DNA of 58,841 nucleotides from a virus (taxonomy: Duplodnaviria > Heunggongvirae > Uroviricota > Caudoviricetes): IMG/VR virus record IMGVR_UViG_3300023371_000069; one strand, 5' to 3'. Shown here in pieces: positions 6,404 through 19,391 of this stretch; position 1 is the stretch's first letter; every line of letters begins with the position of its first letter. The notes under the pieces are model-generated. The model ran no database searches. It was not told where the DNA came from and saw nothing but the letters and a program-made list of their open reading frames with translations. A program made the translations under genes and the position numbers.

Positions 6404-6443
6404 GGCACACCCTTTAATTGTGCAATGTGACGAATCCCGCCAT

Positions 6444-6468: not shown

Positions 6469-6553
6469 CCTAATTGCCAGTATAACACATCCCAGCCATT
6501 TTGTCAAGAGGAAAATTAGAAAAAAAATAAATAATTATTTTTCCCAAAAGGTA

Positions 6554-6582
6554 TTGACAAATCGGTCTCCGTGTGGTATACT
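6554..6582 (+). promoter_or_regulatory. class 1 early promoter
   Basis: TTGACAAAtcggtctccgtgTGgTATACT. Confidence 0.6.
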
Positions 6583-6615
6583 AAGTACAACAAAAGAACA
6601 AAGGAGCTAAACACC

Positions 6616-6939
6616 ATGAAGAAGATTACCAAGACTGCCGAAGAGACCAAGAGAGACGAACTCGTCATCGCTACTCGCAATGCAAAGGACAAGATTGAGT
6701 ACTGTGTGAGAGTCATCAACCGCAGACAGAAGGCAATGGCTATGTTGCCCCAAGAGTCCGCAGAATACAAGATGTTTGCGGGCGATGTAACCGAGGATAA
6801 ATGGGTACTGGTTTCCGCTCTGCGTAGCTACGACAGAGCAAGGGAAGAACTGGCTGAGCACTGCCGAGCCTACCACCTCGCAGGAAATACTTTCCTTTCT
6901 GGCTATGAACTTTTGGAAATTCTCGCAGAAAAGGCTTGA
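6616..6939 (+). CDS. hypothetical protein
   Basis: ATG follows the leader aaaggagctaaacacc. Confidence 0.5.
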   Translation: MKKITKTAEETKRDELVIATRNAKDKIEYCVRVINRRQKAMAMLPQESAEYKMFAGDVTEDKWVLVSALRSYDRAREELAEHCRAYHLAGNTFLSGYELLEILAEKA

Positions 6940-6964
6940 CAAAAGCCTTTCTCTGTGATACAAT
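6936..6964 (+). promoter_or_regulatory. class 1 early promoter
   Basis: TTGACAAAagcctttctctgTGaTACAAT. Confidence 0.55.
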
Positions 6965-6990
6965 GTAGGTACAAAAGGAAAGGAACTGAA

Positions 6991-7431
6991 ATGAAAATGA
7001 TTTACTGTGGCTATCAGGGTAGTGGAAAATCTACCTACTGTAGAAATAACCCCAATACTACTGTTGACCTCGACAGCTCCGCATTTGTCAAGGTCGCAGG
7101 ATGGGAAGAAAACTATGTGCGGACGGCGGTTGCCCTCGCTACTGACAAGAATGTATTCATCTCCGCTCATCGTGTGGTGATTGAATACTGCATGAACAAC
7201 AACATTCCCTTTGTTATCCTCGCACCCTCGCAGAGCAAAGAGGCTTGGCGTGCTCGTCTTGAGTTCCGCTACCACAAGAACCCCATCCTCGCAAACTTTA
7301 AGGCAATCGCAGACTTCGAACAAAATTTCGACAACGACCTGCAATACTATCGCCTTTTGGAAAGCAAGGGCATTTGCGTGCGGTGGATTGAAGCCACAGT
7401 TGTGACAAACATTGGCGAAAAAATTTTTTGA
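6991..7431 (+). CDS. P-loop NTPase (putative nucleotide or polynucleotide kinase)
   Basis: Walker A motif GYQGSGKST near the N-terminus. ATG follows aaggaaaggaactgaa. Confidence 0.5.
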   Translation: MKMIYCGYQGSGKSTYCRNNPNTTVDLDSSAFVKVAGWEENYVRTAVALATDKNVFISAHRVVIEYCMNNNIPFVILAPSQSKEAWRARLEFRYHKNPILANFKAIADFEQNFDNDLQYYRLLESKGICVRWIEATVVTNIGEKIF

Positions 7432-7438
7432 AAAGGGG

Positions 7439-7467
7439 TTGACAAAACCCCTTTCCCGTGTTATAAT
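7439..7467 (+). promoter_or_regulatory. class 1 early promoter
   Basis: TTGACAAAacccctttcccgTGtTATAAT. Confidence 0.6.
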
Positions 7468-7498
7468 TAAGATACAAAAAGAGAGGAGAGTAAATCAA

Positions 7499-7825
7499 AT
7501 GTTAAAGAGCATGAGCATCACCGTGAGTTTCACCGACCACTGCTACACCGAACGCAGAGAAAGACTTGTAAAAATGGATAGAGAGTTAGGCTTCGGCGAA
7601 ATCATTTGCACCACAATTTACAGAGGAAAGAGAAACTGCTTGACTTCCACTGGTATCTTAATGGTAATGGATGCCAAGAGCAACATTCTTGTCACCGCCT
7701 ACCCTGCAAGATGGAAGATTGCCTGCAAGATGTTCTACGAAACTACTGGTGGTTATCCTCCTGCTGGTTACTCTGAAATCATCAGACGGGCAAAAGCATG
7801 GGACTGTGAAAATAATTGGATTTAG
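7499..7825 (+). CDS. hypothetical protein
   Basis: ATG follows agagaggagagtaaatcaa. Confidence 0.5.
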   Translation: MLKSMSITVSFTDHCYTERRERLVKMDRELGFGEIICTTIYRGKRNCLTSTGILMVMDAKSNILVTAYPARWKIACKMFYETTGGYPPAGYSEIIRRAKAWDCENNWI

Positions 7826-7828
7826 GGG

Positions 7829-7857
7829 TTGACAAATCCCTAAATCTATGGTATAAT
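7829..7857 (+). promoter_or_regulatory. class 1 early promoter
   Basis: TTGACAAAtccctaaatctaTGgTATAAT. Confidence 0.6.
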
Positions 7858-7887
7858 TTAATTACAAAAAGAAAAGAGGTAAACGAA

Positions 7888-8043
7888 ATGAGTAAGAAAA
7901 AGAAAAACACAATCGACCGCAGAATGTTCAAGAAAGAGGGAGAAGAACTTCAGCAGTATCTCCACTTTCGCAAGCGTGGCTCTGTGGTAGAAAGCAAGAA
8001 GAAATACAACAGACAGAAATTCAAAAGGGGTGATAATGGATGA
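7888..8043 (+). CDS. small basic protein
   Basis: ATG follows aaaagaggtaaacgaa. The protein is Lys/Arg-rich. Confidence 0.45.
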   Translation: MSKKKKNTIDRRMFKKEGEELQQYLHFRKRGSVVESKKKYNRQKFKRGDNG

Positions 8044-8264
8044 TTATTAAAGGGGCAGATGGTGAGTACGAAGCCACATGGAAGCTCGGCGAAGACTATG
8101 TTCATGTAGTCTATCGAAAGATAATTCATCCCAATTGGCCCATTTTCCGCACAAAATACTACTATTGCACAGTAATTCACAAAGAAGATTTCAACCAGAA
8201 GCGAGTGCGGGATGCTCTCCTTGTTAGAGAACATTACGAAAAAAAATGTGCTTGCGGGGGTTGA
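8040..8264 (+). CDS. hypothetical protein
   Basis: Overlaps the previous stop with ATGA. Confidence 0.45.
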   Translation: MIIKGADGEYEATWKLGEDYVHVVYRKIIHPNWPIFRTKYYYCTVIHKEDFNQKRVRDALLVREHYEKKCACGG

Positions 8265-8289
8265 CAAAATCCCCAAACCATGTTATAAT
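8261..8289 (+). promoter_or_regulatory. class 1 early promoter
   Basis: TTGACAAAatccccaaaccaTGtTATAAT. Confidence 0.6.
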
Positions 8290-8309
8290 AATGCCAAGAG
8301 GTGAGAACA

Positions 8310-8540
8310 ATGAAAACAGCAGCAGAAATAGCACGAGAGTGGCAAGCACAATTGCGTGACCCTCGCATTAGATGTCCTAACTGCGGGAGTAGTGCCCAAT
8401 CCGAACTGGTGTACCAGGACAATACAAGCAACCGCAGAGAGAAAAAAGACGATTACATTTGCGGGTGCGGGTGTCGGTTCAGGGCACATTTTACACTCAT
8501 TCAAACCGAGATACTGGAAATCGAAGCGCCTTACTACTAA
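8310..8540 (+). CDS. Zn-ribbon protein
   Basis: CPNCGS...CGCGC motifs. A hairpin terminator follows. Confidence 0.5.
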   Translation: MKTAAEIAREWQAQLRDPRIRCPNCGSSAQSELVYQDNTSNRREKKDDYICGCGCRFRAHFTLIQTEILEIEAPYY

Positions 8541-8593
8541 GGCGCTTTTTCCATTTTGCTTTTTCGGTCGCGCGCCCACGGCCCAGGCGCGCG
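8524..8593 (+). terminator. tandem hairpins (AAGCGCC..GGCGCTTTTTCC and the GC-rich CGCGCGCCC..GGGCGCGCG)
   Basis: Inverted repeats with a T-run after the first. Confidence 0.5.
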
Positions 8594-8599
8594 TTATTT

Positions 8600-8760
8600 C
8601 CATTATACCACAGCCCCAGCAATTTGTCAATAGGCAATTTGCACAAAAAATAAATAGTTGTTTTTCCTAAAATTGTGCTTGACTTTCTATTCCGGATGTG
8701 ATACAATGTTCTTGTGGTTGAGAGAGACCACTAAATCAAAAAAAAGTTCAAGAAAATGAA
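8600..8760. repeat. conserved intergenic unit, also seen near 6470, 10390, 12560, 14210, 15815, 17150 and 18165
   Basis: Shared sequence block (tTTCCATTATACCAC.GCCCCAGCAATTTGTCAA.AGG...TTGCACAAA...). Read on the minus strand it gives TTGACA-17-TGGTATAAT. A plus-strand promoter TTGACT-17-TGATACAAT lies at its end. Confidence 0.5.
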
Positions 8761-8769
8761 AAAAAGTTC

Positions 8770-8798
8770 TTGACAAACCGGGAAACTGGTGTTATAAT
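8770..8798 (+). promoter_or_regulatory. class 1 early promoter
   Basis: TTGACAAAccgggaaactggTGtTATAAT. Confidence 0.6.
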
Positions 8799-8835
8799 TA
8801 AGATACAAAAAGGAACTGAAAAGGAGATAATAACA

Positions 8836-9309
8836 ATGACTAAGGGTAATTTCTTCCGCTACTACAACAAGCTGACTGGCGCTGACCGCACTCTGATTTT
8901 CTTCGAGCGCAAGGGTATCATCTACATCTACAACTGCAAGCACATCGCTCCTCGTTGGGCACACGAAGAATTTGAGTCCTCCAAGAACGGCGGACAGCAG
9001 AAATTCAAGATGTACATCAGCGTATCCGAAAAGGATAAGCTGATTGCCAAGGGTGCAACCCCCATCATGACCAAGGCTGAATTTGAAGCCATTCCTTACA
9101 AGAACAAGGGTCACAAGTGCGAAGCCTATCTGCACAAGGCTTGCGGTCTGGGTGAGTACACTCCCGACCATGTCCGCTTTGACTACTGCGGTGATGTGGA
9201 AATCGGTGGCGTTCAGTATCAGGTCAAGTACGAAAACGCAAGCCTGACCAATGTGGATGTGCTCCACAAGGCACAGAAGCGGGCAAGAGAAATGAAAAAG
9301 GGAAAGTAA
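8836..9309 (+). CDS. hypothetical protein
   Basis: ATG follows aaaaggagataataaca. A hairpin of the form GGGAAAG..CTTTCCC follows the stop. Confidence 0.5.
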   Translation: MTKGNFFRYYNKLTGADRTLIFFERKGIIYIYNCKHIAPRWAHEEFESSKNGGQQKFKMYISVSEKDKLIAKGATPIMTKAEFEAIPYKNKGHKCEAYLHKACGLGEYTPDHVRFDYCGDVEIGGVQYQVKYENASLTNVDVLHKAQKRAREMKKGK

Positions 9310-9339
9310 AAAAAACTTTCCCTTTTTTCAAAAAAGGTA

Positions 9340-9368
9340 TTGACAAATCACGGTTTTGGGTGTATAAT
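9340..9368 (+). promoter_or_regulatory. class 1 early promoter
   Basis: TTGACAAAtcacggttttggGTgTATAAT. Confidence 0.6.
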
Positions 9369-9399
9369 TAAGGTACAAAAAGGAAAGGAACTGATACAA

Positions 9400-9852
9400 A
9401 TGGCAAAGCAGATGAACATCACAATTAACTTCGACATGGACGGCACAATCGCTGACCTCTATGGTGTAGAGAACTGGCTCGAATACCTCATCGCAGGTGA
9501 CACTTTCCCCTACGCAAACGCAAGACCTCTGCTCCACCTCTCCGCACTGGCTCGCAAGCTGAACGCACTTCAGCGGAACGGCTACAACCTCGCAGTTATC
9601 TCTTGGTTGAGCAAAAGTGGAACTGCTGAATACAACGAAGCAGTTACCGAAGTCAAGCTGAACTGGCTGAGAAAGCACCTGCCGAGCGTGAACTGGAACG
9701 AAATCCACATCGTTCCCTATGGCACTCCGAAGCAGAACTTCTGCAACAATCCTCTCGACATTCTGTTCGACGATGAAGAACGCAACAGAACGAACTGGAC
9801 AGGCAGAGCCTACGATGTGCAGAACATCTTGGAAATTCTCAGAGAAATCTGA
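9400..9852 (+). CDS. HAD-superfamily hydrolase (5'(3')-deoxyribonucleotidase-like)
   Basis: N-terminal FDMDGTIADL is the HAD DxDGT motif. The protein is about 150 aa. Confidence 0.55.
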   Translation: MAKQMNITINFDMDGTIADLYGVENWLEYLIAGDTFPYANARPLLHLSALARKLNALQRNGYNLAVISWLSKSGTAEYNEAVTEVKLNWLRKHLPSVNWNEIHIVPYGTPKQNFCNNPLDILFDDEERNRTNWTGRAYDVQNILEILREI

Positions 9853-9862
9853 GAATTTCCTC

Positions 9863-9892
9863 TTGACAAACGGCAATTGATGTGCTATAATT
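9863..9892 (+). promoter_or_regulatory. class 1 early promoter
   Basis: TTGACAAAcggcaattgaTGTGcTATAAT. Confidence 0.6.
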
Positions 9893-9922
9893 AAGACACA
9901 AAGAAGAAAGGAACTGATAAAA

Positions 9923-10072
9923 ATGTTAGAAATGATTTGCGCAATCCCCGAAGAAATCGGCTGGGCATTGGTTGGCTTTGTCGGAGCATTCGCCTTGATG
10001 ATGGCTGTCAAGGTCGGCAAGATAATCGTTGAAGCAATCAAAGAAAGATTGGAGGATGATGAAGAATGCTGA
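9923..10072 (+). CDS. small membrane protein (49 aa)
   Basis: ATG follows the leader. It has one transmembrane helix and ends in TGA. Confidence 0.45.
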   Translation: MLEMICAIPEEIGWALVGFVGAFALMMAVKVGKIIVEAIKERLEDDEEC

Positions 10073-10335
10073 AAACTGGAATTGTAGTTTGCCCCACTTG
10101 CGGGGGCGAGGTTGTTGAGTTCGATACTCTCGACATTGAGGTGGACAACACCACTGTGACCCTCTTTAAGGTTGGCGAGTGCGACCACTGCGGAAACCAT
10201 TACCAGTGGCACGAGGAATACACCCTTGCAGGATACCGCGACCTGGAACAGACCCAGGGCGAAAGCGAGGACGAGCCCGATGCGGACGAATGCGGGTTCG
10301 ACCCCTTCGCAGGTTGTTATACTTACGACTGCTGA
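10066..10335 (+). CDS. Zn-ribbon/acidic protein
   Basis: CPTCGG...CDHCG motifs. Ends in TGA. Confidence 0.45.
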   Translation: MLKTGIVVCPTCGGEVVEFDTLDIEVDNTTVTLFKVGECDHCGNHYQWHEEYTLAGYRDLEQTQGESEDEPDADECGFDPFAGCYTYDC

Positions 10336-10446
10336 AAAAGCAGTCGTTTGTTTTTGGCGGCGCGCTCACGGTCCAGGCGCGCCGATTTTCGTCAGAATAA
10401 CCAGTTTCAACAATTTTCCGTGCAATTTATTTGTGCAAAATAACAG

Positions 10447-10475
10447 TTGACAAATCCCAAAAGGTGTGATACAAT
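10447..10475 (+). promoter_or_regulatory. class 1 early promoter
   Basis: TTGACAAAtcccaaaaggtgTGaTACAAT. Confidence 0.55.
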
Positions 10476-10505
10476 AGTATCAACAAAGGAAAGGAACTGA
10501 TACAC

Positions 10506-10910
10506 ATGAAACTGGTTTACGATTGCGGACAATCCATCTCTCTGTCTCCTCGCAGAGATTTTGAAGAAACTTCTATTTGGTGGCACCTGCACCTGCTCGA
10601 TGCGGAAGAATCCCTCGACCGCACCAACCGCACTTACTACGACACTTTCGAGAGCTTTTTTGAAGCGGTCTGTGAAAACAAGGTAAGAAATGCAGAAGCC
10701 TACATCGGTCTGTTCAAGACCCCCAAGGTATTGGTGAAATGTGGCATGAACCACTATACTGTCACCAAGAGGAACTTCAAAGAGGTGTGCGTGTGGAACT
10801 ACACCAAAGAAGTCTCCCACCTGCCCATGTCCACCCTCATGGACAAACTTCCTGCGGACGAGTTCGCAGAATACCTGCGTGAAAGGGGAGTAGCCTTACA
10901 GCAAGGCTAA
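10506..10910 (+). CDS. hypothetical protein
   Basis: ATG follows aaaggaaaggaactgataca. Confidence 0.5.
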   Translation: MKLVYDCGQSISLSPRRDFEETSIWWHLHLLDAEESLDRTNRTYYDTFESFFEAVCENKVRNAEAYIGLFKTPKVLVKCGMNHYTVTKRNFKEVCVWNYTKEVSHLPMSTLMDKLPADEFAEYLRERGVALQQG

Positions 10911-10934
10911 TCCCCGGAAAAATTAAAAAAAGGT

Positions 10935-10964
10935 ATTGACAAATCAAACAATCTGTGCTATAAT
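10935..10964 (+). promoter_or_regulatory. class 1 early promoter
   Basis: TTGACAAAtcaaacaatcTGTGcTATAAT. Confidence 0.6.
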
Positions 10965-10994
10965 AAATTTATCAAGTGAAAGGAAATGATACCA

Positions 10995-11654
10995 ATGTTT
11001 ACTGAAAAAACTTTTGCAATTATCGACACTGAAACCCTCGGCGGTGCTTCTCAGGCGCACTGCCCTACCTACCACTGCGCTGGCATTGCTTTCACCAAGA
11101 GAGCAGAAATCAGCAGAATCAACATCGTGGTCATCGGCAACCTACTTTTGGATTCTGCGTTCTATGGCAAATTCAAAAAAGACTACTACCGCGACCTGCT
11201 CCGCGACCCTGCAACTATTATCTGCTACAACGAAGCAGAGGCAAGCGAAATCTTCTCTGCGTGGCTTGCTGAAAACAATGTGTCCTGCGCCTGCGCCCAC
11301 AACAGCGGTTTTGACTTCAACAAGACTTTCGTTGCTGAGTGTATCGAGGGAATGGAATTCATCGACACTTGGCAGGCATTTTTCGAGACCATCGGCAAGT
11401 ACACCAAGTACAACAAATTCTGCTGTGAAAATGGCTTTGTAACCAAGAGCGGAAACGTTCAGATGACCGCAGAAATCTGCTACCGCTTCATCAGCGGAGA
11501 CATTGAGTTCGTCGAGGAACACACCGCCCTCGCAGATTGTGAAATCGAAATGCAGATTCTGCGTGCGGTTTGGGCAACTCACCGCAAGTTTACTCGCAAT
11601 GTTCACAAGGGCGATTCCGCCTATCGCTTCCAAGTGGTCAAGGGCAGATTCTAA
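10995..11654 (+). CDS. DEDD-family 3'-5' exonuclease (DnaQ/RNase T-like)
   Basis: Exo I motif AIIDTETLG, Exo II motif HNSGFDF and Exo III motif HTALADCE. Confidence 0.6.
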   Translation: MFTEKTFAIIDTETLGGASQAHCPTYHCAGIAFTKRAEISRINIVVIGNLLLDSAFYGKFKKDYYRDLLRDPATIICYNEAEASEIFSAWLAENNVSCACAHNSGFDFNKTFVAECIEGMEFIDTWQAFFETIGKYTKYNKFCCENGFVTKSGNVQMTAEICYRFISGDIEFVEEHTALADCEIEMQILRAVWATHRKFTRNVHKGDSAYRFQVVKGRF

Positions 11655-11666
11655 AATCTGCCCTCC
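11641..11666 (+). terminator. hairpin terminator
   Basis: AGGGCAGATTCTAAAATCTGCCCT. Confidence 0.5.
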
Positions 11667-11682
11667 CGGGCGAAAAAAGGTA

Positions 11683-11712
11683 TTGACAAATTCAAAATCA
11701 TGTGCTATAATT
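11683..11712 (+). promoter_or_regulatory. class 1 early promoter
   Basis: TTGACAAAttcaaaatcaTGTGcTATAAT. Confidence 0.6.
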
Positions 11713-11743
11713 AACTCAGAAAACAAGAAAGGAACTGACAGTA

Positions 11744-12151
11744 ATGACTTGGGCAGAACATTTGGAAGCTATGCGAAATACTCCCGCATTTATTAACGAA
11801 GCAAACCCCCTGCGCTTCTCTGCACCCGAAAGCGAAGGTTTGTACCTTGTAGGTAGCACCAATTTCAATCCCTTTACCCATGAAGAAATCTATTTGGTAA
11901 AGGTTGGTAAAAGCTACAACCTGCAACGCAGAATGAAAGATTATCTCACCACCAACCCTGGAATGTTCCACATTGATTTTTGTACCATTCCCCGCCCCAT
12001 GGTCGGCAAGTCCGAATGGCAGTGCCACGCAATTTTGTATGCAGTTTGCAAAGGCAAGGTAGAAAAAAGCGAAGAGTGGGTGAGAGTAAGCCGAGAGGTT
12101 TATCTCGAAATCTGCGAAAAGGGTTTCAAATATTTTTCTGAAAGAATGTAA
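11744..12151 (+). CDS. hypothetical protein
   Basis: ATG follows the leader. Ends in TAA. Confidence 0.5.
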   Translation: MTWAEHLEAMRNTPAFINEANPLRFSAPESEGLYLVGSTNFNPFTHEEIYLVKVGKSYNLQRRMKDYLTTNPGMFHIDFCTIPRPMVGKSEWQCHAILYAVCKGKVEKSEEWVRVSREVYLEICEKGFKYFSERM

Positions 12152-12158
12152 AAAACCC

Positions 12159-12188
12159 TTGACAAACCCCCAAGAGTGTGCTATAATA
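12159..12188 (+). promoter_or_regulatory. class 1 early promoter
   Basis: TTGACAAAcccccaagagTGTGcTATAAT. Confidence 0.6.
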
Positions 12189-12239
12189 AATACAACAAAG
12201 GGAAAGGAAAATCCCAAACACCAGAAAGGAAATGATACC

Positions 12240-12482
12240 ATGATGAACTACAAGTATGTTGTTGAGAGCTTCTACGATGATGCCAAGGTCACTGTCGAAA
12301 CCAACGACCCCGAGGTCGCAGTTCTGGAAATGATGCAGAGGGACATGGATGGTGTCCACGCCCACTGCGTTGATGGTCTGACTGGCGAAGTCCTCGCCCT
12401 CGTCAACCACCCCGACCAGTTCGTCCAGTCTGAGTTCGCTCTGATGACCCTGGGTGTGCTGATGGCACACCTGGCAAAGTAA
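12240..12482 (+). CDS. small acidic protein
   Basis: ATGATG start follows aaaggaaatgatacc. Confidence 0.5.
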   Translation: MMNYKYVVESFYDDAKVTVETNDPEVAVLEMMQRDMDGVHAHCVDGLTGEVLALVNHPDQFVQSEFALMTLGVLMAHLAK

Positions 12483-12760
12483 CAAACCAAGAGCCATCCC
12501 GCAAGGGGTGGCTTTTTCATTTCAATTTTTGGGCGCGGCGCCCTCGGATGTGGGCGCCGGAATTTCCATTATACCACACCGCCAGCAATTTGTCAAGAGA
12601 AAAGTTACACAAAGTTTGATTGATTTGAATTCCTGTTTTTGTGCATTATTACCTATTGACTTTTGGTGCGGTCTGTGGTATACTATCATTGTCAAGGGGA
12701 GATAGGTGAGCCTGCCCCCAAGGGCGAAAAAAAAATCTCAAAAAAAATTGAGAAAACCCC

Positions 12761-12789
12761 TTGACAAACCCCTTAAAGTGTGATACAAT
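12761..12789 (+). promoter_or_regulatory. class 1 early promoter driving a non-coding transcript
   Basis: TTGACAAAccccttaaagtgTGaTACAAT. No ORF follows within about 220 nt. Confidence 0.5.
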
Positions 12790-12799
12790 AAGGGTACAA

Positions 12800-13020
12800 A
12801 AGGCGAGGGCAAGGCGACCACGAAAAGGTGGGTGCCCACGAGAGCGAGTAAGACCTTGTTACCAATGACCCGACCGCAAGGTGTTCCTGTTTGCGGAATA
12901 CAAATGTGAACCAGACCACGCAGGCTGAAAAAATGTCGTGGATACGCAGGATACAAAAGCCAATTTCTTTGGTGGTGAAAGCGGACTCACCCTAACTGTG
13001 GCTTAAAGGCTCAGCCAAGC
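12800..13020 (+). ncRNA. candidate promoter-driven small RNA (about 220 nt, A-rich 3' end)
   Basis: Lies downstream of a consensus promoter. No start-codon-initiated ORF is present, and the tract ends in an A-run just before the next promoter. Confidence 0.3.
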
Positions 13021-13047
13021 CAAAGAAAAAAAAATTAAAAAAAACTC

Positions 13048-13076
13048 TTGACAAACAAATCAAGATGTGCTATAAT
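13048..13076 (+). promoter_or_regulatory. class 1 early promoter
   Basis: TTGACAAAcaaatcaagaTGTGcTATAAT. Confidence 0.6.
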
Positions 13077-13155
13077 AAGTATGTAAAGAGGAAAACCTCT
13101 TACAAATAAATTCATCGACAGGTTCAAGTCGTTAAAACCGAAAGGAATTGATACT

Positions 13156-13515
13156 ATGGCTAACAACAAGAAGATGACCAAGGCTGACTACTTCAAGCAG
13201 ATTTCTGCCAACTACCCTCTGACTGCCGATGAGCAGGCTTTCATCGCCCACGAACTGGAACTGCTCGCCAAGAAGAACTCTGCGGAAAAGAAGCCGACCG
13301 CACAGCAGGTGGCAAACGCAGGTGTCGCTGATGCCATCGTCAATGCGATGGAAGATGGTGTCCTCTACACCATCACCGACCTCATCAAGACTGTTCCTGC
13401 GTGTGCGGAACTGACCAACCAGCGTGTTTCTGCCATCGTGCGTGGTATGATTGGCACCAAGGTTGAGCGTGTCGAGGAAAAGCGTAAGGCATACTTCCGC
13501 AAGATTGCGGAGTAA
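13156..13515 (+). CDS. early protein family A, copy 1
   Basis: Paralogous to 16185..16553 and 17720..18088. Shares ELELLAKKNSAEKKPTAQQ and PACAELTNQRVSAIVRG. Confidence 0.55.
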   Translation: MANNKKMTKADYFKQISANYPLTADEQAFIAHELELLAKKNSAEKKPTAQQVANAGVADAIVNAMEDGVLYTITDLIKTVPACAELTNQRVSAIVRGMIGTKVERVEEKRKAYFRKIAE

Positions 13516-13586
13516 GCCTACTCCCCCAAGGGCAGGGGGTAACCCCTGCCCACCTTGACCCCGGCGAAAAAATTTTCAAAAAGCAC

Positions 13587-13615
13587 TTGACAAATCCCTC
13601 TGTCTGTGCTATACT
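13587..13615 (+). promoter_or_regulatory. class 1 early promoter
   Basis: TTGACAAAtccctctgtcTGTGcTATACT. Confidence 0.6.
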
Positions 13616-13640
13616 ATAATCACAGAAAGGAAGTGAGTCA

Positions 13641-14000
13641 ATGCTTGATGAAAAGTTAATTGCCAAGCACATGGCAAGCCTCGGCATCAGCCGAGAGGAA
13701 GCAATCCAGTTGATTGAGGATGACAAAGCAATCGACAGGGGCGCAAAGATGTTTGAGCTTGACCCCGAACTTGAGAAAGGCGCAAAAAAGGCAAGACAAG
13801 CCGAGCGCAAGGTCAGCACCACCCCAGTGAAGCGAGAGAAGAAAGCCAAGCCTGAAAAGGCTGAAATCTGCTCCGCAATGATGGATGGTCTGCGAGTTTT
13901 GGGTGTGGAAGATTTCACCATCAACAACCCCGAACGCGAGTTCTTGTTCATCCACAATGGAACGAAGTACAAGGTCACACTTGCCTGCCCTCGTTCCTAA
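13641..14000 (+). CDS. early protein family B, copy 1
   Basis: Paralogous to 16670..17041 through the EEA.QLI.DDKAIDRG motif. Confidence 0.55.
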   Translation: MLDEKLIAKHMASLGISREEAIQLIEDDKAIDRGAKMFELDPELEKGAKKARQAERKVSTTPVKREKKAKPEKAEICSAMMDGLRVLGVEDFTINNPEREFLFIHNGTKYKVTLACPRS

Positions 14001-14266
14001 GGCTCCTAAGGGGTCGAGCCAATCGGCCCCATTCCATTGGCGGTGTGCTGTCATCGTCTGGAGGTAAACCACTAGGGGGAAGGCGCCCAACCCTGGGGTA
14101 TGGTACTAAAACAAAACAGCCGAGAAAAGACCCAGGGGGGCGCCCTTGGGTCTTCGTCATTTTGCACAAAAATTCGGCCGCGCGCTGACGTACGCCAGCG
14201 CCGGTTTTTCGGCGAAATAACCAGTTTCAACAATTTTTGGGGCGAAATCTTTGTGCAAATTGACTA

Positions 14267-14295
14267 TTGACATTTCCCATTATCGGGTGTATAAT
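14267..14295 (+). promoter_or_regulatory. class 1 early promoter
   Basis: TTGACAtttcccattatcggGTgTATAAT. Confidence 0.55.
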
Positions 14296-14324
14296 AAGGG
14301 TACAAAGTCAAGGAGGTAACAACA

Positions 14325-14507
14325 ATGGGTATGACTTACAAGCAGTTCATGGACTACGCAATGCAGAACTACTGCAACGGCGGTGATTGTGTGGTCGAGT
14401 GTTGGGATGAACTCTCTTTCCGCTACTACTGCGAAGAGTTCGGTCCGATGACCAAGGAAAAGGCTGACAGTCTCTTCCGCACTTACCGCGGTTGTGGGGG
14501 GTACTAA
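14325..14507 (+). CDS. small Cys-containing protein
   Basis: ATG follows aaggaggtaacaaca. Confidence 0.5.
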   Translation: MGMTYKQFMDYAMQNYCNGGDCVVECWDELSFRYYCEEFGPMTKEKADSLFRTYRGCGGY

Positions 14508-14542
14508 TTCCCCACAAAAGAAAAAAAGTTTCAAAAAACCTA

Positions 14543-14572
14543 TTGACAAACATCCAAAAGTGTGCTATAATA
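14543..14572 (+). promoter_or_regulatory. class 1 early promoter
   Basis: TTGACAAAcatccaaaagTGTGcTATAAT. Confidence 0.6.
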
Positions 14573-14602
14573 ATTACAGAAAACAAGAAAGGAACTGATA
14601 CT

Positions 14603-14848
14603 ATGAAAATGTTCAATGAAATGTCCCTCAAGTCCATCCGCAACAAGCTCAGCAAGGTCGGTGTCACTATGACCGACGAGCAGTTCAACTCCCTCACCTA
14701 CTCCGAACTCCGCAAGGTGTACAAGAAGTCCAAGAGGGCTTACGCACTCTATGAGCAGGTGGATGCCATTATCAACAAGCCAAAGGCTCCCACTCCTGCG
14801 GTGCCGATGCCTGCCAAGGACAACGACAAGGATGCCAGGGGGTTCTAA
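14603..14848 (+). CDS. hypothetical protein
   Basis: ATG follows aagaaaggaactgatact. Confidence 0.5.
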   Translation: MKMFNEMSLKSIRNKLSKVGVTMTDEQFNSLTYSELRKVYKKSKRAYALYEQVDAIINKPKAPTPAVPMPAKDNDKDARGF

Positions 14849-14888
14849 CCCCTTTGGCTCCGCCCGGAAAAATAATTTCCAAAAGGGT

Positions 14889-14918
14889 ATTGACAAACAG
14901 AGAGATTTGTGCTATAAT
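14889..14918 (+). promoter_or_regulatory. class 1 early promoter
   Basis: TTGACAAAcagagagattTGTGcTATAAT. Confidence 0.6.
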
Positions 14919-14942
14919 AACCACAGAAAGGAAGTGAAGTGA

Positions 14943-15422
14943 ATGGATACGAAATTGCTGATTGTGTTCATCGCTCTGAACATCGCCAATGTTATCATTC
15001 AAACTGTAAAATCTATCGCCACTGTTAAATGCGGAAAGGTGTCTGCCGCAGTTATCAATGCGGTTGCCTATGGTCTGTACACCATCGTCACTGTTTACTT
15101 AATGTGTGAACTTGACCTCTACCTCAAAGCAGGAATTGTGGCTCTGTGTAATTTGGTGGGTGTCTATGTGGTAAAACTCATTGAAGAAAAGGCACGCAAG
15201 GACAAGCTTTGGAAGATTGAAGCAACTGTCTTTGACCCCTACACCAAAAGCCTGCATTGTGATTTGACCGCAGAAGAAATCCCTTGCAACTACATTCCCA
15301 AAATCGGCAAGTGGTCTGTGTTCAACATTTACTGCGACAGCCAAGAGAAAAGCAAGAAAGTCAAAGCCTTGCTTGAAAAATACGATGCAAAATACTTTGT
15401 GAGTGAAAGCAAGACCTTGTAA
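14943..15422 (+). CDS. membrane protein (4 predicted transmembrane helices)
   Basis: Hydrophobic helices are visible in the translation. Confidence 0.5.
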   Translation: MDTKLLIVFIALNIANVIIQTVKSIATVKCGKVSAAVINAVAYGLYTIVTVYLMCELDLYLKAGIVALCNLVGVYVVKLIEEKARKDKLWKIEATVFDPYTKSLHCDLTAEEIPCNYIPKIGKWSVFNIYCDSQEKSKKVKALLEKYDAKYFVSESKTL

Positions 15423-15428
15423 AAAGGT

Positions 15429-15458
15429 CTTGACAAACTCCACCAAATGTGCTATAAT
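15429..15458 (+). promoter_or_regulatory. class 1 early promoter
   Basis: TTGACAAActccaccaaaTGTGcTATAAT. Confidence 0.6.
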
Positions 15459-15490
15459 TAAGACAATCCAAGAGGAAAGGAACTGATACA

Positions 15491-15769
15491 ATGAAAGCAA
15501 CTGGAATTATCCGCAGAGTTGATGACCTCGGCAGAGTGGTTATCCCCAGAGAAATCCGTCGGTCAATGGGCATCCGCGAGGGCGAACCCCTCGAAATCTT
15601 CATCGATGGCAGAGATACTGTCTGCTTCCGCAAGTACGAAGCCAATCTGAATGGCGAAATTGACCATCTGGTGGACACCATCGAAACCTGCGTGGACGAC
15701 TACGAAAAGATGGCACAAATCAAGAAGCTTCTGGGCGAAGTGCGGAAGCTGGTGAAAAGCGAGGAGTAA
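15491..15769 (+). CDS. AbrB-family transition-state regulator/antitoxin-like protein
   Basis: GIIRRVDDLGRVVIPREIRRSMGIREGEPLEIF closely matches the AbrB/SpoVT N-domain. Confidence 0.6.
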   Translation: MKATGIIRRVDDLGRVVIPREIRRSMGIREGEPLEIFIDGRDTVCFRKYEANLNGEIDHLVDTIETCVDDYEKMAQIKKLLGEVRKLVKSEE

Positions 15770-16008
15770 AACCCTCGCTTTTTGCGCGGCCCGGGCGCGA
15801 CTGTGCCCGGCCGAATTTACCATTATACCATGCCCCGCACAATTTGTCAAGAGGAAATGTTGCACAAAATAATCTTTTTAATTTTCCTGTAATTTGTGCA
15901 GTTTGCCTATTGCAATTCGCTTTTGGATGTGGTATACTATCTATGTCAGTAAGGGAGAGACCCAAGCGGACAGACCGAAAAAAAGTTTGAAAAACTTAAA
16001 AAAACCTC

Positions 16009-16038
16009 TTGACAAACCCCCAAAGATGTGATATAATG
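16009..16038 (+). promoter_or_regulatory. class 1 early promoter (first of a tandem pair)
   Basis: TTGACAAAcccccaaagaTGTGaTATAAT. Confidence 0.55.
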
Positions 16039-16105
16039 AATACATCAAAGGGAGAGAGAAAGCCAAAGGTTCAAAAAAGATTTTCAAAAAAATCAAAAAA
16101 ACCTC

Positions 16106-16135
16106 TTGACAAATCGCTCAACCTATGATATAATA
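16106..16135 (+). promoter_or_regulatory. class 1 early promoter (second of the tandem pair)
   Basis: TTGACAAAtcgctcaaccTaTGaTATAAT. Confidence 0.55.
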
Positions 16136-16184
16136 AATACACAAAGACAAGGACAGTCTTAAAAACCAGAAAGGAATTGATACT

Positions 16185-16553
16185 ATGGCTACTACTCAGA
16201 AGATTACCAAGGCTCAGAAGTTTGCAATGCTCAAGGCTATCCCCGCTGTTGCGGAGAACGCAATGCTCGTGGAGTTCATCGAGCACGAGTTGGAGTTGCT
16301 CGCCAAGAAGAACTCCGCTGAGAAGAAACCCACTGCTCAGCAGACCGCCAATGCTTCCATCGGCGAAGCCATCGTGGCTCATCTCCAGAGCCAGCCCAAC
16401 CGCCTCTTTACCATCACTGAGGTTATCAAGGAAGTGCCTGCGTGTGCTGAGTTGACCAATCAGCGAGTGTCCGCAATCGTGCGTGGTCTCATCGGCACCT
16501 CTGTGGAGCGTGTGGAAGAGAAGCGAAAGGCTTATTTCAGAGCCATTCGCTGA
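16185..16553 (+). CDS. early protein family A, copy 2
   Basis: See 13156..13515. Confidence 0.55.
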   Translation: MATTQKITKAQKFAMLKAIPAVAENAMLVEFIEHELELLAKKNSAEKKPTAQQTANASIGEAIVAHLQSQPNRLFTITEVIKEVPACAELTNQRVSAIVRGLIGTSVERVEEKRKAYFRAIR

Positions 16554-16608
16554 GCCACTCCCCAAGGGGGGGCAATAGCCCCCCCAAAATGGGGCACGGA
16601 ATTTCAAA

Positions 16609-16638
16609 AAAGGTCTTGACAAACCGCCCAAGATGTGC
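16609..16638 (+). promoter_or_regulatory. class 1 early promoter
   Basis: TTGACAAAccgcccaagaTGTGcTATACT. Confidence 0.6.
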
Positions 16639-16669
16639 TATACTGTAAGTACAGAAAGGGGGTAAACCA

Positions 16670-17041
16670 ATGGCAGAAAGTCAAGTCGAACGCATTATGC
16701 GAAATCTGAAATGCTCCAAAGAAGAAGCCGAACAGATTATCGCAGACGACAAGGCAATCGACAGAGGTGAGCGAATGGCTTTTGACCTCTCACCTGAAGC
16801 CGAAAAGCAAGCCAAAAAATTCGCAAATACTGGCACAAGGCAGACAAATGGGCAGAAAACCGAGCGAAAACGCAAGGAAAACCCCACAAAAGCCACGATA
16901 ATTGCCGAAATTGCTCAGTTTTTGGCTGAAAATGGCTACGAAATGGTCGAAATCACCAATAAAGAGCGTCAAATCGCCTTAAAAGTTGGTGAAAATGCCT
17001 ACGAACTGACGCTTGTGCAGAAACGCAAGCCAAAAAGTTGA
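16670..17041 (+). CDS. early protein family B, copy 2
   Basis: See 13641..14000. Confidence 0.55.
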   Translation: MAESQVERIMRNLKCSKEEAEQIIADDKAIDRGERMAFDLSPEAEKQAKKFANTGTRQTNGQKTERKRKENPTKATIIAEIAQFLAENGYEMVEITNKERQIALKVGENAYELTLVQKRKPKS

Positions 17042-17044
17042 GAA

Positions 17045-17075
17045 AATCGCCCCAAAAGGGCGATTTTTTCGTTAT
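17045..17075 (+). terminator. rho-independent terminator
   Basis: ATCGCCCCAAAAGGGCGAT hairpin followed by TTTTTTCG. Confidence 0.65.
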
Positions 17076-17373
17076 TTTTTCCAAATTAAATTTAAATTTG
17101 TGCAATTTGCACAAAAATCGGCCGGCCGCACACAGATGTGCGGCCCGGTATTCGGCAAAATGCACAAGTTCAACAAGTTTTTTACCCAATTATTTGTACA
17201 ACATTACCACTTGCATTTTCCTAAAAATCTGCTATAATTAGTAGTGTCAAGGGGATGAAGTAAACCCCCGCAGATGGGTCGGCGCAGAGGGTTGAAAAAT
17301 GTTGGGCAGAGGGGTTAGATTGTCCCACCAATCAGACCACCGAAACTTTTTCAAAAAACTTTTGAAAAACCAC

Positions 17374-17402
17374 TTGACAAACAGCACAAGATGTGCTATA
17401 AT
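17374..17402 (+). promoter_or_regulatory. class 1 early promoter driving a non-coding transcript
   Basis: TTGACAAAcagcacaagaTGTGcTATAAT. No ORF follows for about 200 nt. Confidence 0.5.
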
Positions 17403-17409
17403 GAGTATG

Positions 17410-17615
17410 TAATCAAGAGGGGAACTCCTTCGAGGCAAGACCGCAACAGATGGTGGAAACAGACACAGGCGAATTGAAACTCTACAACTCCTACGCAAGA
17501 TTCCCCCCTACTAGGGTGAGTGGTGAGCAACGAAAGGGTGCGAGTAGACTCAAGGCAGGGGGCAGAAACAAGTCCAGTGAGCGCAAGGATGCTGTGGGAA
17601 TAAAAAAAATAGTCG
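17410..17615 (+). ncRNA. candidate promoter-driven small RNA (about 200 nt)
   Basis: Purine-rich and ORF-less. Ends in an A-run before the next promoter. Confidence 0.3.
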
Positions 17616-17636
17616 CGAATATTTTTTGAAAACCTC

Positions 17637-17666
17637 TTGACAAACTCAAAACCATGTGCTATAATA
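17637..17666 (+). promoter_or_regulatory. class 1 early promoter
   Basis: TTGACAAActcaaaaccaTGTGcTATAAT. Confidence 0.6.
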
Positions 17667-17719
17667 AGTATGTAATCAAGGGAAGGAAAACCCTAAAAAA
17701 CCAGAAAGGAACTGATACT

Positions 17720-18088
17720 ATGGCAAACACTAAGAAGCTGACTAAGAAGGACCATTTCAACACCCTGCTGACCCTGGCTGAGGTCAAGTCCAACCTTGCG
17801 CTGGTCGAGTTCATCGAGCATGAGCTGGAACTCCTGGCGAAGAAGAACTCTGCTGAGAAGAAGCCTACTGCCCAGCAGGTCGCCAATGCTGGTGTGGCAG
17901 AAGCCATTCTGTCCCACATGAGCGCAGACCCCAATCGTCTGTTCTCCATCACTGAGCTGATTAAGGAAGTGCCTGCCTGCGCAGAGCTGACTAATCAGCG
18001 AGTGAGCGCCATCGTGCGTGGCATGATTGGTGTGTCTGTCGAGCGCATCGAGGAGAAGCGCAAGGCGTTCTTCAGGGTCATCCAGTGA
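17720..18088 (+). CDS. early protein family A, copy 3
   Basis: See 13156..13515. Confidence 0.55.
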   Translation: MANTKKLTKKDHFNTLLTLAEVKSNLALVEFIEHELELLAKKNSAEKKPTAQQVANAGVAEAILSHMSADPNRLFSITELIKEVPACAELTNQRVSAIVRGMIGVSVERIEEKRKAFFRVIQ

Positions 18089-18100
18089 TGACCCCTTCCT

Positions 18101-18136
18101 CCCCCTGCCCCCAATTCGTGGGGCAGGGGCTTTTTT
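18101..18136 (+). terminator. rho-independent terminator
   Basis: CCCCTGCCCCCAATTCGTGGGGCAGGGG hairpin followed by CTTTTTT. Confidence 0.65.
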
Positions 18137-18277
18137 GCGCCGTGCGCCAACGAGTGTGGCGCCCGGAATTCGTCAAAATAACTAGTCCCCGTAAATTTCC
18201 AATCGAATTTTTTGTGCAGTTTGTCATCTTGATTTTTCCCGCAATTGGTGGTATACTAATCCTAAGAGGTGAGGCAA

Positions 18278-18448
18278 ATGACCGCAGAAGAAATGCGCAA
18301 GGCTAAAGCTGAATTGCACAAAGTTATTATTGATACTGTTTTATCTTTTGGGGGAACTCTCCATGACGATGCAACCATGTATCGATACATTATCGAATTA
18401 GCGTCTAATGAGCTTTTAGCTTGTGTTCCTTTTTCCAATGAAAATTAA
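18278..18448 (+). CDS. small hypothetical protein (56 aa)
   Basis: Driven by the plus-strand promoter at the end of the intergenic unit (TTGTCA..TGgTATACT). SD AGAGGTGAGG lies upstream. Confidence 0.4.
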   Translation: MTAEEMRKAKAELHKVIIDTVLSFGGTLHDDATMYRYIIELASNELLACVPFSNEN

Positions 18449-18456
18449 AAAAGTGC

Positions 18457-18486
18457 TTGACAAATTATTAAGTCTGTGCTATAATA
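18457..18486 (+). promoter_or_regulatory. class 1 early promoter
   Basis: TTGACAAAttattaagtcTGTGcTATAAT. Confidence 0.6.
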
Positions 18487-18534
18487 AGTATGTAATCAAG
18501 GGAGCGAGTGCTCCACAAGAAAGGGTAATTTACT

Positions 18535-19140
18535 ATGAGAACCATTAAACTGTTTGAGCGTGAAATCAATCTGATTGTCAATGAAGACCTGCGTATGGCG
18601 GTCAAGTCTTACATGGAAGAAGCCACCCCTGACTACTTCTGGACAGATGGTGCTTCCTCTTCTGGCAAGTATCATCCCCAGTTTTCGCAGGGCATCGGCG
18701 GTCTGGTTCGTCACACCAAGGCGGTTGTGATGTTCGCTGAAGAACTGCTCCGCATGAGTTCCTACGCCTACATGAAAGACGAGTACAAGGACTTCGTAAT
18801 TGCGGCTTGTATCATCCATGATACCGCAAAGTATGGTGTCGATTGGTTTGACAAGGCAGAATACAAGAACCACGCAAGAAACGCAAGCAAGGCTTTTGCA
18901 GGTTGGTGCGAACAGGTGTTCGATTTTACTCCCCATTTTCTTCTGCTGAACGCAGTTGAAAGTCACATGGGTCAATGGTCTACTGAACGAGAGGACAGAC
19001 CTTTCACCAGCGTGGACAGATGTGTTCACATGGCGGACTACATGGCAAGTCGCTCTTTCATCGACATTCCTTCCATCACAGAGGAATACAACAAAATCGC
19101 TTGCCAGTGGGCGGCGGAACACCACGAACTGCCTTTCTAA
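18535..19140 (+). CDS. HD-domain phosphohydrolase-like protein
   Basis: Contains a His..HD motif (..KYHPQF.., CIIHDTAKYG) and several conserved His/Asp residues. Confidence 0.45.
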   Translation: MRTIKLFEREINLIVNEDLRMAVKSYMEEATPDYFWTDGASSSGKYHPQFSQGIGGLVRHTKAVVMFAEELLRMSSYAYMKDEYKDFVIAACIIHDTAKYGVDWFDKAEYKNHARNASKAFAGWCEQVFDFTPHFLLLNAVESHMGQWSTEREDRPFTSVDRCVHMADYMASRSFIDIPSITEEYNKIACQWAAEHHELPF

Positions 19141-19186
19141 AGGCAGGGAGTGGAAACCCCGGCGAAAAATATTTTTCAAAAACCTA

Positions 19187-19216
19187 TTGACAAATCTCCA
19201 AGAATGTGCTATAATG
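19187..19216 (+). promoter_or_regulatory. class 1 early promoter
   Basis: TTGACAAAtctccaagaaTGTGcTATAAT. Confidence 0.6.
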
Positions 19217-19244
19217 AGTTCATCAAAGGAAAGGAACTGATACA

Positions 19245-19391
19245 ATGAACTGTCTGAAATGTGATAACTACTGGCGCACCGACATTGACGAAAGCCGATG
19301 CGATAGATGCGGATGCCAAGAAGAATCCAACACCAACCCCAAAGAAAGCGAGGACAAAGGCAATGAGCAAAAAGCATCTGGGCTGTGCTGA
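19245..19391 (+). CDS. small Cys-rich protein
   Basis: ATG follows aaggaaaggaactgataca. CxxC motifs present. Confidence 0.45.
   Translation: MNCLKCDNYWRTDIDESRCDRCGCQEESNTNPKESEDKGNEQKASGLC

Follow-up and report, generated by a model that had tools for sequence, protein, structure and literature searches.

The stretch analysed here (the window) consisted of 58,841 nucleotides (nt) of the IMG/VR virus record IMGVR_UViG_3300023371_000069, part of a large uncultivated phage which carries 39 tRNA genes at 40.7–58.7 kb as predicted by ARAGORN and Rfam. Two promoter-driven intervals in the first third of the window, designated R1 and R2, were the subject of this study. Related contigs of 130–200 kb were common in IMG/VR and in gut metagenome-assembled genomes (MAGs) labelled Clostridia, Acutalibacteraceae or Eubacteriales, and those fetched for comparison (viral, MAG and metagenome contigs) are labelled L001–L128. 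A megablast comparison of positions 12000–18500 with the INPHARED phages gave no match, and no cultured relative was present in that collection. The region at 5.4–19.8 kb is an array of small genes under separate near-perfect sigma-70 promoters. A total of 31 such promoters (class 1) were distributed on the + strand from 5465 to 19755 and shared the design TTGACAaa, a 17-nt spacer and a TG-extended TATAAT with an A-rich tract upstream. Between 12.0 and 18.6 kb, 28 promoter-like sites were counted compared to 6.2 ± 2.7 in shuffled sequences, which is far above chance. Most of the 31 promoter intervals open, within about 25–110 nt, an open reading frame (ORF) of 57–222 amino acids (aa) with a Shine-Dalgarno (SD) sequence and an ATG start, and the leader AAAGGAACTGATACnATG is common ahead of these ORFs.

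A sequence-only reading of the window had proposed that the class 1 promoters at 12761 and 17374 drive ORF-less transcripts. Both promoters could be confirmed as perfect or near-perfect sigma-70 sites, both intervals extend to the next promoter (13048 and 17637, respectively), and both are atypical for their surroundings, as the longest ATG ORF after 12761 is 20 aa and no ORF with a ribosome-binding site follows 17374. The claim that neither strand holds an ATG ORF failed for the second interval, which contains ATG ORFs of 59 aa (17450–17629, +) and 54 aa (17491–17655, −); in the first interval the only ATG ORFs are of 14 and 20 aa, and the minus strand has longer TTG/GTG frames. The purine richness described was present but modest (59% in R1 and 64% in R2 vs 55% for 5–20 kb). 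Within the first interval, the functional element covers only 12796–12970, and the remaining 12971–13047 is specific to the window, with no homologue in any fetched locus, and is missing from the close relative L128. The principal features are as follows.

12761–12789 (+): R1 promoter; TTGACA, 17-nt spacer, TG-extended TACAAT, A-rich tract upstream.
12796–12970 (+): R1 RNA of about 175 nt; structured and non-coding, with a pseudoknotted fold and a covariance-model match.
12971–13047 (+): tail between R1 and the next promoter, 77 nt; small hairpin, A-rich tract, no intrinsic terminator.
17374–17402 (+): R2 promoter; TTGACA, 17-nt spacer, TG-extended TATAAT, A-rich tract upstream.
17409–17604 (+): R2 RNA of about 195 nt; second conserved non-coding element, probably structured.

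Homologues of R1 were collected in two ways. The downstream 119-aa protein was used as bait to gather 45 related viral loci, in which R1 was then sought by nhmmer and blastn, and a 22-nt pattern taken from the most conserved stretch of R1 returned 36 viral and 27 genome-collection contigs, giving 46 distinct sequences. One of these 46, a Mucilaginibacter sequence, was a chance match and was rejected by the covariance model. The model itself, built on the nested helices of 10 sequences, was searched against 868 kb of fetched DNA and produced 56 matches in related phage and MAG contigs, with a single copy in the window (12795–12970, 195.7 bits). In L014, R1 was 86% identical at the nucleotide level over 169 nt, whereas the adjacent bait protein was just 61% identical.

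For R1, no SD sequence, conserved start codon or conserved frame was found. Invariant anchors are spaced 18, 19 or 20 nt apart across homologues, so that no reading frame is preserved, and the variable hairpins differ by 1–20 nt. The median longest ATG ORF over the homologues was 22 codons, the 14-aa and 20-aa ORFs of the window lack an SD sequence and are lost in subgroup A2, and the pyrimidine-rich composition of the minus strand can explain its long open frames. The search of Rfam 15 (4227 models) that the sequence-only reading had called for gave no family match to R1 or R2 at gathering thresholds (12790–12941 and 17403–17636); at E ≤ 10 the one match, at the 3' edge of R1 and its tail, was noise (mycoplasma_FSE, 28 bits vs a cutoff of 88). 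ARAGORN and the Rfam tRNA and tmRNA models identified no tRNA or tmRNA at R1 or R2. The two elements showed no similarity by blastn and tblastx to each other or to the rest of the window, and are therefore neither duplicated nor degenerate copies of genes in the window.

The fold of R1 was modelled manually from alignments, followed by realignment to the covariance model. Its elements, all on the + strand, are listed below.

12807–12863 (+): 5' domain; P1/P2, Pa and Pb around a three-way junction, manual model.
12807–12814 with 12854–12863 (+): P1/P2; GGGCAAGG with CCUUG-uua-CC, alignment model.
12818–12821 with 12828–12831 (+): hairpin Pa, alignment model.
12833–12837 with 12842–12846 (+): hairpin Pb; loop ACGA, conserved C.A mismatch.
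12848–12853 (+): junction GUAAGA, alignment model.
12874–12896 (+): hairpin Pc; CCGCAA 12874–12879 with UUGCGG 12891–12896.
12897–12914 (+): conserved single strand AAUAYAARUGUGARCCAG, invariant in the alignments.
12916–12961 (+): 3' domain; Pd, the 3' strand of pseudoknot PK1, and PK2.
12916–12920 with 12937–12941 (+): Pd; CCACG with CGUGG, all five pairs covary.
12885–12890 with 12946–12951 (+): pseudoknot PK1; UCCUGU in the Pc loop with GCAGGA.
12923–12926 with 12958–12961 (+): pseudoknot PK2, weaker; GGCU in the Pd loop with AGCC.

The helices of the 5' domain were 71–93% paired over 53 distinct sequences, with compensatory changes in all pairs but one. Pc was 99.7% paired, and its closing pair covaries (AU:23, CG:19, UG:5, UA:4). 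Over the nested helices, standard pairs accounted for 89.2% of paired cells compared to 70.0 ± 0.8% after shuffling and 34–41% in the slid control, and the covariation score was 0.325 compared to 0.098 after shuffling (0 of 500 shuffles reached it) and about 0.03 with the partner slid. PK1 and PK2 were left out of the covariance model and scored by columns on 26 class-A sequences. PK1 was paired in 100% of these, one position reading UA:16, GC:6, AU:2, CG:1 and GU:1. The conservation and covariation check suggested by the sequence-only reading was therefore positive for R1, with changes on both sides in 22 of the 27 nested pairs and double changes at 6/6 pairs of PK1, and moderate for R2. With compensatory changes well above both the slid and the shuffled controls, R1 behaves as a structured non-coding RNA with respect to conserved secondary structure.

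The pseudoknot PK1 is also retained in class B and in other variants with a different 3' domain, in other sequences and up to 9–10 bp, its partners changing jointly (GUCCUGUUG/CGGCAGGAC, UCGCCACGUU/GGCGUGGCGA, UCUCCCAUUG/UGAUGGGAGA). In L128, the flanking protein of which is 95% identical, the 5' domain of R1 is kept, the 3' domain is swapped and the Pc loop is changed to match. PK2 was 76% paired in the 26 class-A sequences, a value that includes cells lost to one-column register slips in the alignment; by eye it covaries (GGCU/AGCC, GAGGU/ACCUC, GGGGU/ACCCC, UUGCU/AGCAA). Among the R1 cells, G.U outnumbered A.C by 60 to 18, which favours the promoter-transcribed + strand as the folded one.

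Automated analyses recovered less of this fold. RNAalifold on the first MAFFT alignment of seq­uences (n = 7) returned Pb and Pc alone, and on 22 sequences it confused the pseudoknot with nested helices; a column-pair scan of the 46-sequence MAFFT alignment, in which the variable hairpins are misaligned, gave no usable signal. A search for the best complementary run at PK1 was ambiguous (own mean 6.9 vs cross mean 5.8, with alternative complementarities), and hence the column-based test of PK1 was preferred. Pairing of the Pc loop (GUUCCU) with AGGAAC of the shared early leader was also considered and rejected, as the loop covaries with PK1.

Conserved copies of the second element, R2, were found in phages of the L001 and L009 types and in two MAG contigs. 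The first exact R2 patterns retrieved, from viral contigs, only contigs already found; a relaxed pattern applied to the metagenome collection added 19 loci, giving 21 distinct sequences. A recognisable upstream promoter was present in 17 of these 21 homologues, the remainder being truncated or slightly divergent, and the start of the next promoter was invariably about 36 nt past R2. In the L001 group the homologue of R2 directly follows that of R1, and in L102, L094 and L114 both occur within about 2 kb. The 59-codon ORF of R2 (17450–17629) has no SD sequence, its ATG is not conserved, the homologues reading ACAGTGG, ATTGGTGG and ATAGGCGG at this position, and indel lengths are not divisible by three. 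Four helices could be read from the alignments.

17441–17444 with 17453–17456 (+): H-b.
17479–17482 with 17542–17545 (+): H-M.
17487–17490 with 17536–17539 (+): H-N.
17503–17505 with 17514–17516 (+): H-Q.

In a plain MAFFT alignment these helices were 86.5% paired compared to 77.2% after shuffling and 28–46% when slid, and the covariation score was 0.337 compared to 0.195 (0 of 500 shuffles reached it). The covariation points in the same direction as that of R1 and lends R2 a weaker, moderate support. A long-range helix H-L (17450–17452 with 17575–17577) shows covariation on visual inspection, but it was not claimed, since the MAFFT registers differ and it competes with a local hairpin in the window. 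A GAGGG(G)AA stretch close to the 5' end opens both R1 and R2, and a similar motif stands 3' of a helix strand in each (GCGAGUAAGAC at 12844–12855 in R1 and GCGAGUAGAC at 17540–17550 in R2). The R1 covariance model does not detect R2, and common ancestry or a shared binding motif is unproven.

The surroundings of R1 were compared among the homologues. Nearly all of them carry their own consensus promoter at a fixed distance upstream, whereas the sequence that follows R1 varies by locus and may be the next promoter, as in the window, an intrinsic terminator, an SD sequence with an ORF, or a tRNA. An intrinsic terminator lies directly 3' of R1 in five loci (L048, L058, L059, L068 and L095), and in three of them (L058, L068 and L095) a new promoter then stands ahead of the next gene. 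In L081, L103 and L051 an SD sequence and ATG follow 7–30 nt after R1 with no promoter between. Units composed of promoter, RNA and terminator, together with the diversity of what lies downstream, favour an RNA gene in its own right over a leader.

The tRNA neighbours form a recurrent pattern. In L107, L079 and L087 a tRNA-Lys(UUU) begins 0–5 nt from where the R1 model match ends; the gap is 74 nt in L073 and 183 nt in L100, and four further loci have this tRNA within 4 kb. A tRNA-Asn, tRNA-Glu or tRNA-Tyr is found 33–54 nt 3' of R1 in L049, L056 and L098, and in L051 the 3' end of a tRNA is just upstream of R1. Contiguity with a tRNA was thus seen in L107, L079, L087 and L051; in the window R1 has no adjoining tRNA. 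Lys(UUU) accounted for 9 of the 16 tRNAs near R1 compared to 1 of 39 in the window's own array, in loci that are not all independent lineages. Where the tRNA abuts R1, RNase P cleavage would generate the 3' end of R1.

The genes downstream of the two elements belong to one family, three members of which are encoded in the window together with a near-palindrome.

13156–13515, 16185–16553 and 17720–18088 (+): three paralogues of 119–122 aa, 65–68% identical, with a predicted winged-helix fold.
17606–17625 (strand not assigned): near-palindrome AAAATAGTCGCGAATATTTT between R2 and promoter 17637, about −30 to −12 from the −35 box.

Each paralogue is preceded by an ORF-less promoter unit, namely R1, a mini-unit at 16009 and R2, respectively. 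The family has 3480 metagenomic homologues, a sign that phages of this clade are very abundant in the gut metagenomes of animals. Searches revealed no Pfam domain and no PDB sequence match, and only weak matches to PHROG 19455, to which no function is assigned. An AlphaFold (AF2) model with a predicted local distance difference test (pLDDT) score of 87.7 revealed a winged helix-turn-helix resembling PagR, NolR and TubR, with weak Foldseek E-values; the predicted fold gives no direct link to RNA. Members of the family lie 3' of R2 in many loci and 3' of R1 also in loci retrieved without that gene (L084, L097, L102, L114, L050, L058, L062, L070 and L072). Relatives retain the palindrome after R2, and its core, TCGCGA in some and TCCGGA in others, is palindromic in either form. 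The site may be an operator bound by a dimeric DNA-binding protein, which could be the winged-helix product of the gene just downstream, or else may form a weak A/U hairpin.

Considering the conservation, fold, promoters and modular context observed in the alignments, R1 and R2 were interpreted as stand-alone, early-expressed, trans-acting structured RNAs with a probability of about 0.6; expression, action in trans and processing are what we infer from these features. The two would be RNA genes of a large phage of gut Bacillota, transcribed early by the host sigma-70 RNA polymerase, each from its own consensus promoter. R1 would adopt a compact fold composed of a 5' three-way junction, Pc with a pseudoknot of 6–10 bp to the 3' region, an 18-nt single strand and Pd, the loop of which probably makes a second pseudoknot with the 3' end. 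As stable RNAs, they would probably bind a protein or other RNA via the invariant single strand and the junctions, and would not act as leaders for the genes that follow them. In the relatives, the 3' end of R1 would arise from an intrinsic terminator or from RNase P cleavage of an abutting tRNA, mostly tRNA-Lys(UUU), and in the window R1 would be trimmed out of a read-through transcript or left attached. The proposal of phage non-coding RNAs in the sequence-only reading was thereby supported, strongly for R1 and more weakly for R2. The term sRNA, taken as a short base-pairing RNA of the Hfq type, was a poor fit, since the elements are long and highly structured and have no terminator in the window.

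Several observations weigh against this interpretation. A terminator scan identified no intrinsic terminator after R1 or R2 in the window, so that the transcripts should run into the next gene, and a leader role would fit this just as well. Small winged-helix genes of one family recur downstream of R1 and R2, which could point to a connection in cis or in function and not to synteny alone. Most R1 homologues were obtained via one 22-nt pattern, which biases both the diversity of the family and the conservation of that stretch; as the pattern covered 12897–12914, the invariance of the single strand is partly by construction. The nested-helix alignment of R1 was fitted to the covariance model, and for this reason most weight was given to the slid control and the pseudoknots. 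Single-sequence folding gave no thermodynamic signal (z = −1.39 for R1 with its tail and +1.81 for R2), although such z-scores are uninformative here because minimum-free-energy folding ignores the pseudoknots. For R2, double changes were seen in just 7 of 15 pairs, two of the five measures were not above the shuffles, and the helices were picked after inspection of the same sequences that were used for scoring.

The alternative that survives best, which we consider unlikely, is that R1 and R2 are cis-acting leaders, whose nascent RNA would influence either the polymerase that makes it or the message downstream, as antitermination elements, riboswitches or protein-binding leaders for the winged-helix gene. 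The antitermination form has precedents in HK022 put and Bacillus EAR, cis-acting processive antitermination RNAs of which EAR is pseudoknotted; in these, as at R1 and R2, a structured RNA stands just 3' of a promoter with genes following on the same transcript. Both elements come directly after a strong promoter, and with no terminator in the window their transcripts would continue into 13156–13515 and 17720–18088, genes of the one family which often follows R1 and R2 loci alike. The three loci with a closely spaced SD sequence and ATG (L081, L103 and L051) would suit a leader, and in L051 a CUCCU stretch could, by eye, sequester the SD sequence. In most loci, however, a full consensus promoter separates the RNA from the next gene, as do promoters 13048 and 17637 in the window, and a gene with its own intervening promoter does not depend on a leader. 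The downstream partners are diverse, including tRNAs, terminators and unrelated small genes, and arrangements of promoter, R1, terminator, promoter and gene occur. Moreover, no Rfam cis-regulatory family, EAR included, was matched, R1 is larger and more complex than put and EAR, and we know of no riboswitch ahead of a tRNA.

It is still less probable that R1 is a catalytic RNA, such as a new self-cleaving or processing ribozyme in which the pseudoknotted core and the invariant strand would form the active site. The architecture recalls compact ribozyme cores: one pseudoknot is well supported and a second likely, the 5' domain has a three-way junction, and 18 invariant nt join two helices. R1 also lies directly beside tRNAs that need processing. 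On the other side, no ribozyme family of Rfam 15 was matched even at E ≤ 10, no conserved cleavage-site signature could be identified, nothing in the sequence demands catalysis, and the invariance of the strand is in part an artefact of retrieval.

Decayed gene remnants, non-functional spacers or small-protein genes, for example the 59-aa ORF at 17450–17629, are very improbable explanations. In their favour, close relatives differ by insertions and deletions in the mosaic early region, promoter 12656 is followed by a 77-nt unit that resembles a truncated form of a longer element in L128, R2 does contain an ATG ORF of 59 codons, and the R1 tail at 12971–13047 is not conserved. Decay is nevertheless largely refuted for R1, which is better conserved than the neighbouring coding sequence and has undergone extensive compensatory change, and tblastx related neither element to other parts of the window. 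A small protein is opposed in R2 by the missing ATG in homologues, the lack of an SD sequence and the frame-shifting indels, and in R1 by the lack of SD sequences at the 14-aa and 20-aa ORFs and their loss in subgroup A2. Least probable of all is a role of the conserved sequence as DNA (an origin, a packaging or recombination site, or a protein-binding array), which the predicted winged-helix DNA-binding fold of the neighbouring family and the conserved palindrome after R2 might suggest, but which does not account for compensatory changes that keep antiparallel pairing of segments up to 65 nt apart, the pseudoknot included, for the tolerance of G.U over A.C (60 to 18), or for a dedicated promoter aimed into the element in fixed register.

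For R1 as a trans-acting RNA, the linkage to tRNA-Lys(UUU) was regarded as the best functional lead. Anticodon nucleases have been described as attacking tRNAs for Lys(UUU), Asn, Glu and Tyr, and the solitary tRNAs beside R1 in relatives are of these same four kinds; R1 shares with anti-defence phage tRNAs an early, promoter-proximal position. R1 differs from them in that it is not a tRNA (ARAGORN and Rfam were negative) and has no recognisable mimic of an anticodon stem-loop. Phage tRNAs counter tRNA-cleaving defences, as T5 tRNA-Lys does against PARIS (PMC11464382), and are also implicated in evasion through anticodon-loop variants (PMC10264068) and in evasion of retrons (PMC11555353). An improbable extension would make R1 a new class of compact, pseudoknotted RNA working with the early tRNA-Lys(UUU), either as a decoy or inhibitor of defence nucleases or as a ribozyme acting on tRNA or defence RNA, with R2 as a second RNA of this early set that co-occurs with it. 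The nucleases of the decoy version would, by conjecture, be host tRNA-targeting enzymes of the PrrC, RloC, PARIS or retron-effector type, and a role of R1 in defence evasion is likewise conjectural.

Orphan structured phage RNAs, such as T4 RNA C/D, ROOL and GOLLD, are a known kind, and the R1 and R2 families were found in no searched curated library. Species 1 and 2 of T4 (RNA C and RNA D) are small stable RNAs encoded with phage tRNA genes. They resemble R1 as phage-encoded structured non-coding RNAs of about 120–180 nt. The T4 RNAs lie beside tRNA genes and are freed by the tRNA-processing machinery, and a possible counterpart in R1 relatives is the tRNA-Lys(UUU) 0–5 nt from the end of the model match. 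In contrast, R1 of the window lies outside the tRNA array (40.7–58.7 kb), in the early small-gene region and under its own promoter, and its fold is pseudoknotted; a sequence relation is not expected. ROOL (RF03087), GOLLD and OLE are large ornate RNAs of Bacillota and their phages, and share with R1 and R2 the character of orphan, structured, covariation-rich RNAs, often phage-borne near tRNA genes. R1 and R2 differ in being three to four times smaller (about 175 and 195 nt vs about 580 nt), in not matching those models and in their place in the early promoter array. ROOL and GOLLD are described in a preprint as forming RNA-only multimeric assemblies (bioRxiv 10.1101/2024.12.08.627333). The R1 and R2 families may be among the thousands of unnamed viral RNA candidates in Fremin et al. 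2023 (PMC10690425).

The analysis adds two phage RNA families with exact boundaries and promoters, R1 also with a covariation-supported pseudoknotted fold, defined sufficiently for synthesis and testing. Their position under early promoters of maximal strength suggests a role early in infection, and the recurrent fusion of R1 with tRNA-Lys(UUU) offers the testable hypothesis of an RNA-based contribution to the evasion of tRNA-directed immunity. Even without a function, R1 is suitable as a new Rfam family and as a candidate for structure determination.

Further ORF-less units were observed in the early region. A GC-rich ORF-less stretch (GGGGUUCAACGGGCCGCGGACGGAGGCCAAGGCCCG...) at 19756–19960 (+), after promoter 19727–19755, had nhmmer matches in more than 15 related loci, with E-values as low as 1e-22, and was conserved more widely than R1 among the paralogue-baited loci; it had no Rfam match and could represent either a regulatory region or a third non-coding RNA. 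Another ORF-less unit, at 17211–17373 (+) immediately before the R2 promoter, consists of TTGCAT-N17-TATAAT followed by about 140 nt from GUGUCAAGGGGAUGAAGUAAACCCCC; its conservation extends to L116 and L124 and, weakly, to L087. Consensus promoters with 63–77 nt to the next promoter and no ORF were found at 12656–12760, 8679–8769 and 16009–16105 (+). Behind the 12656-type promoter of L128, the unit exceeds that of the window by about 60 nt and is accompanied by an extra promoter unit, and the window copy therefore looks truncated. The interval of promoter 5927 was ruled out as an ORF-less unit by an SD sequence and ATG at 6009; its ORF at 6009–6182 (+) encodes a hydrophobic peptide of 57 aa with the SD sequence AAGGAG (MTISNNIAMWIANSNLDNTTTCPEWLGITLVALVVAFGVAAIATIIAVNKN).

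Four consensus promoters were located on the minus strand (12596–12490, 15850–15740, 8630–8520 and 6507–6400), each preceded by TTTGTGCA and each driving a short GC-rich hairpin (e.g. GGCGCCCACAUCCGAGGGCGCC) antisense to the ends of + strand genes. These units are partly conserved in L084, L115, L120 and L008 and could be antisense RNAs or bidirectional terminator modules. A second, AT-rich promoter class with a shared transcript start (TTGATTTTT-N-TATGATATAATATATATGTAAGATAAAGAAAG) was present in 17–22 copies between 20004 and 58445, spread over the tRNA and middle region (e.g. 27438–27491, 41070–41123 and 58392–58445); the class 1 promoters of 5.4–19.8 kb are GC-richer.

Inside the tRNA array, a full-length ROOL (RF03087) was identified at 52033–52624 (+) with 312.6 bits. 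A partial OLE match at 58280–58363 (+), covering model positions 439–592 with 53.5 bits vs a cutoff of 50, lies beside a class-2 promoter and may be spurious. Recoding of TAG has been described for some gut phages. In the window, two amber-suppressor tRNAs (anticodon CUA) were found side by side at 56434–56508 and 56509–56605 (+), and a class-I release factor with PCRF and RF-1 domains is encoded at 34983–36062 (+), which together suggests TAG recoding in part of the genome.

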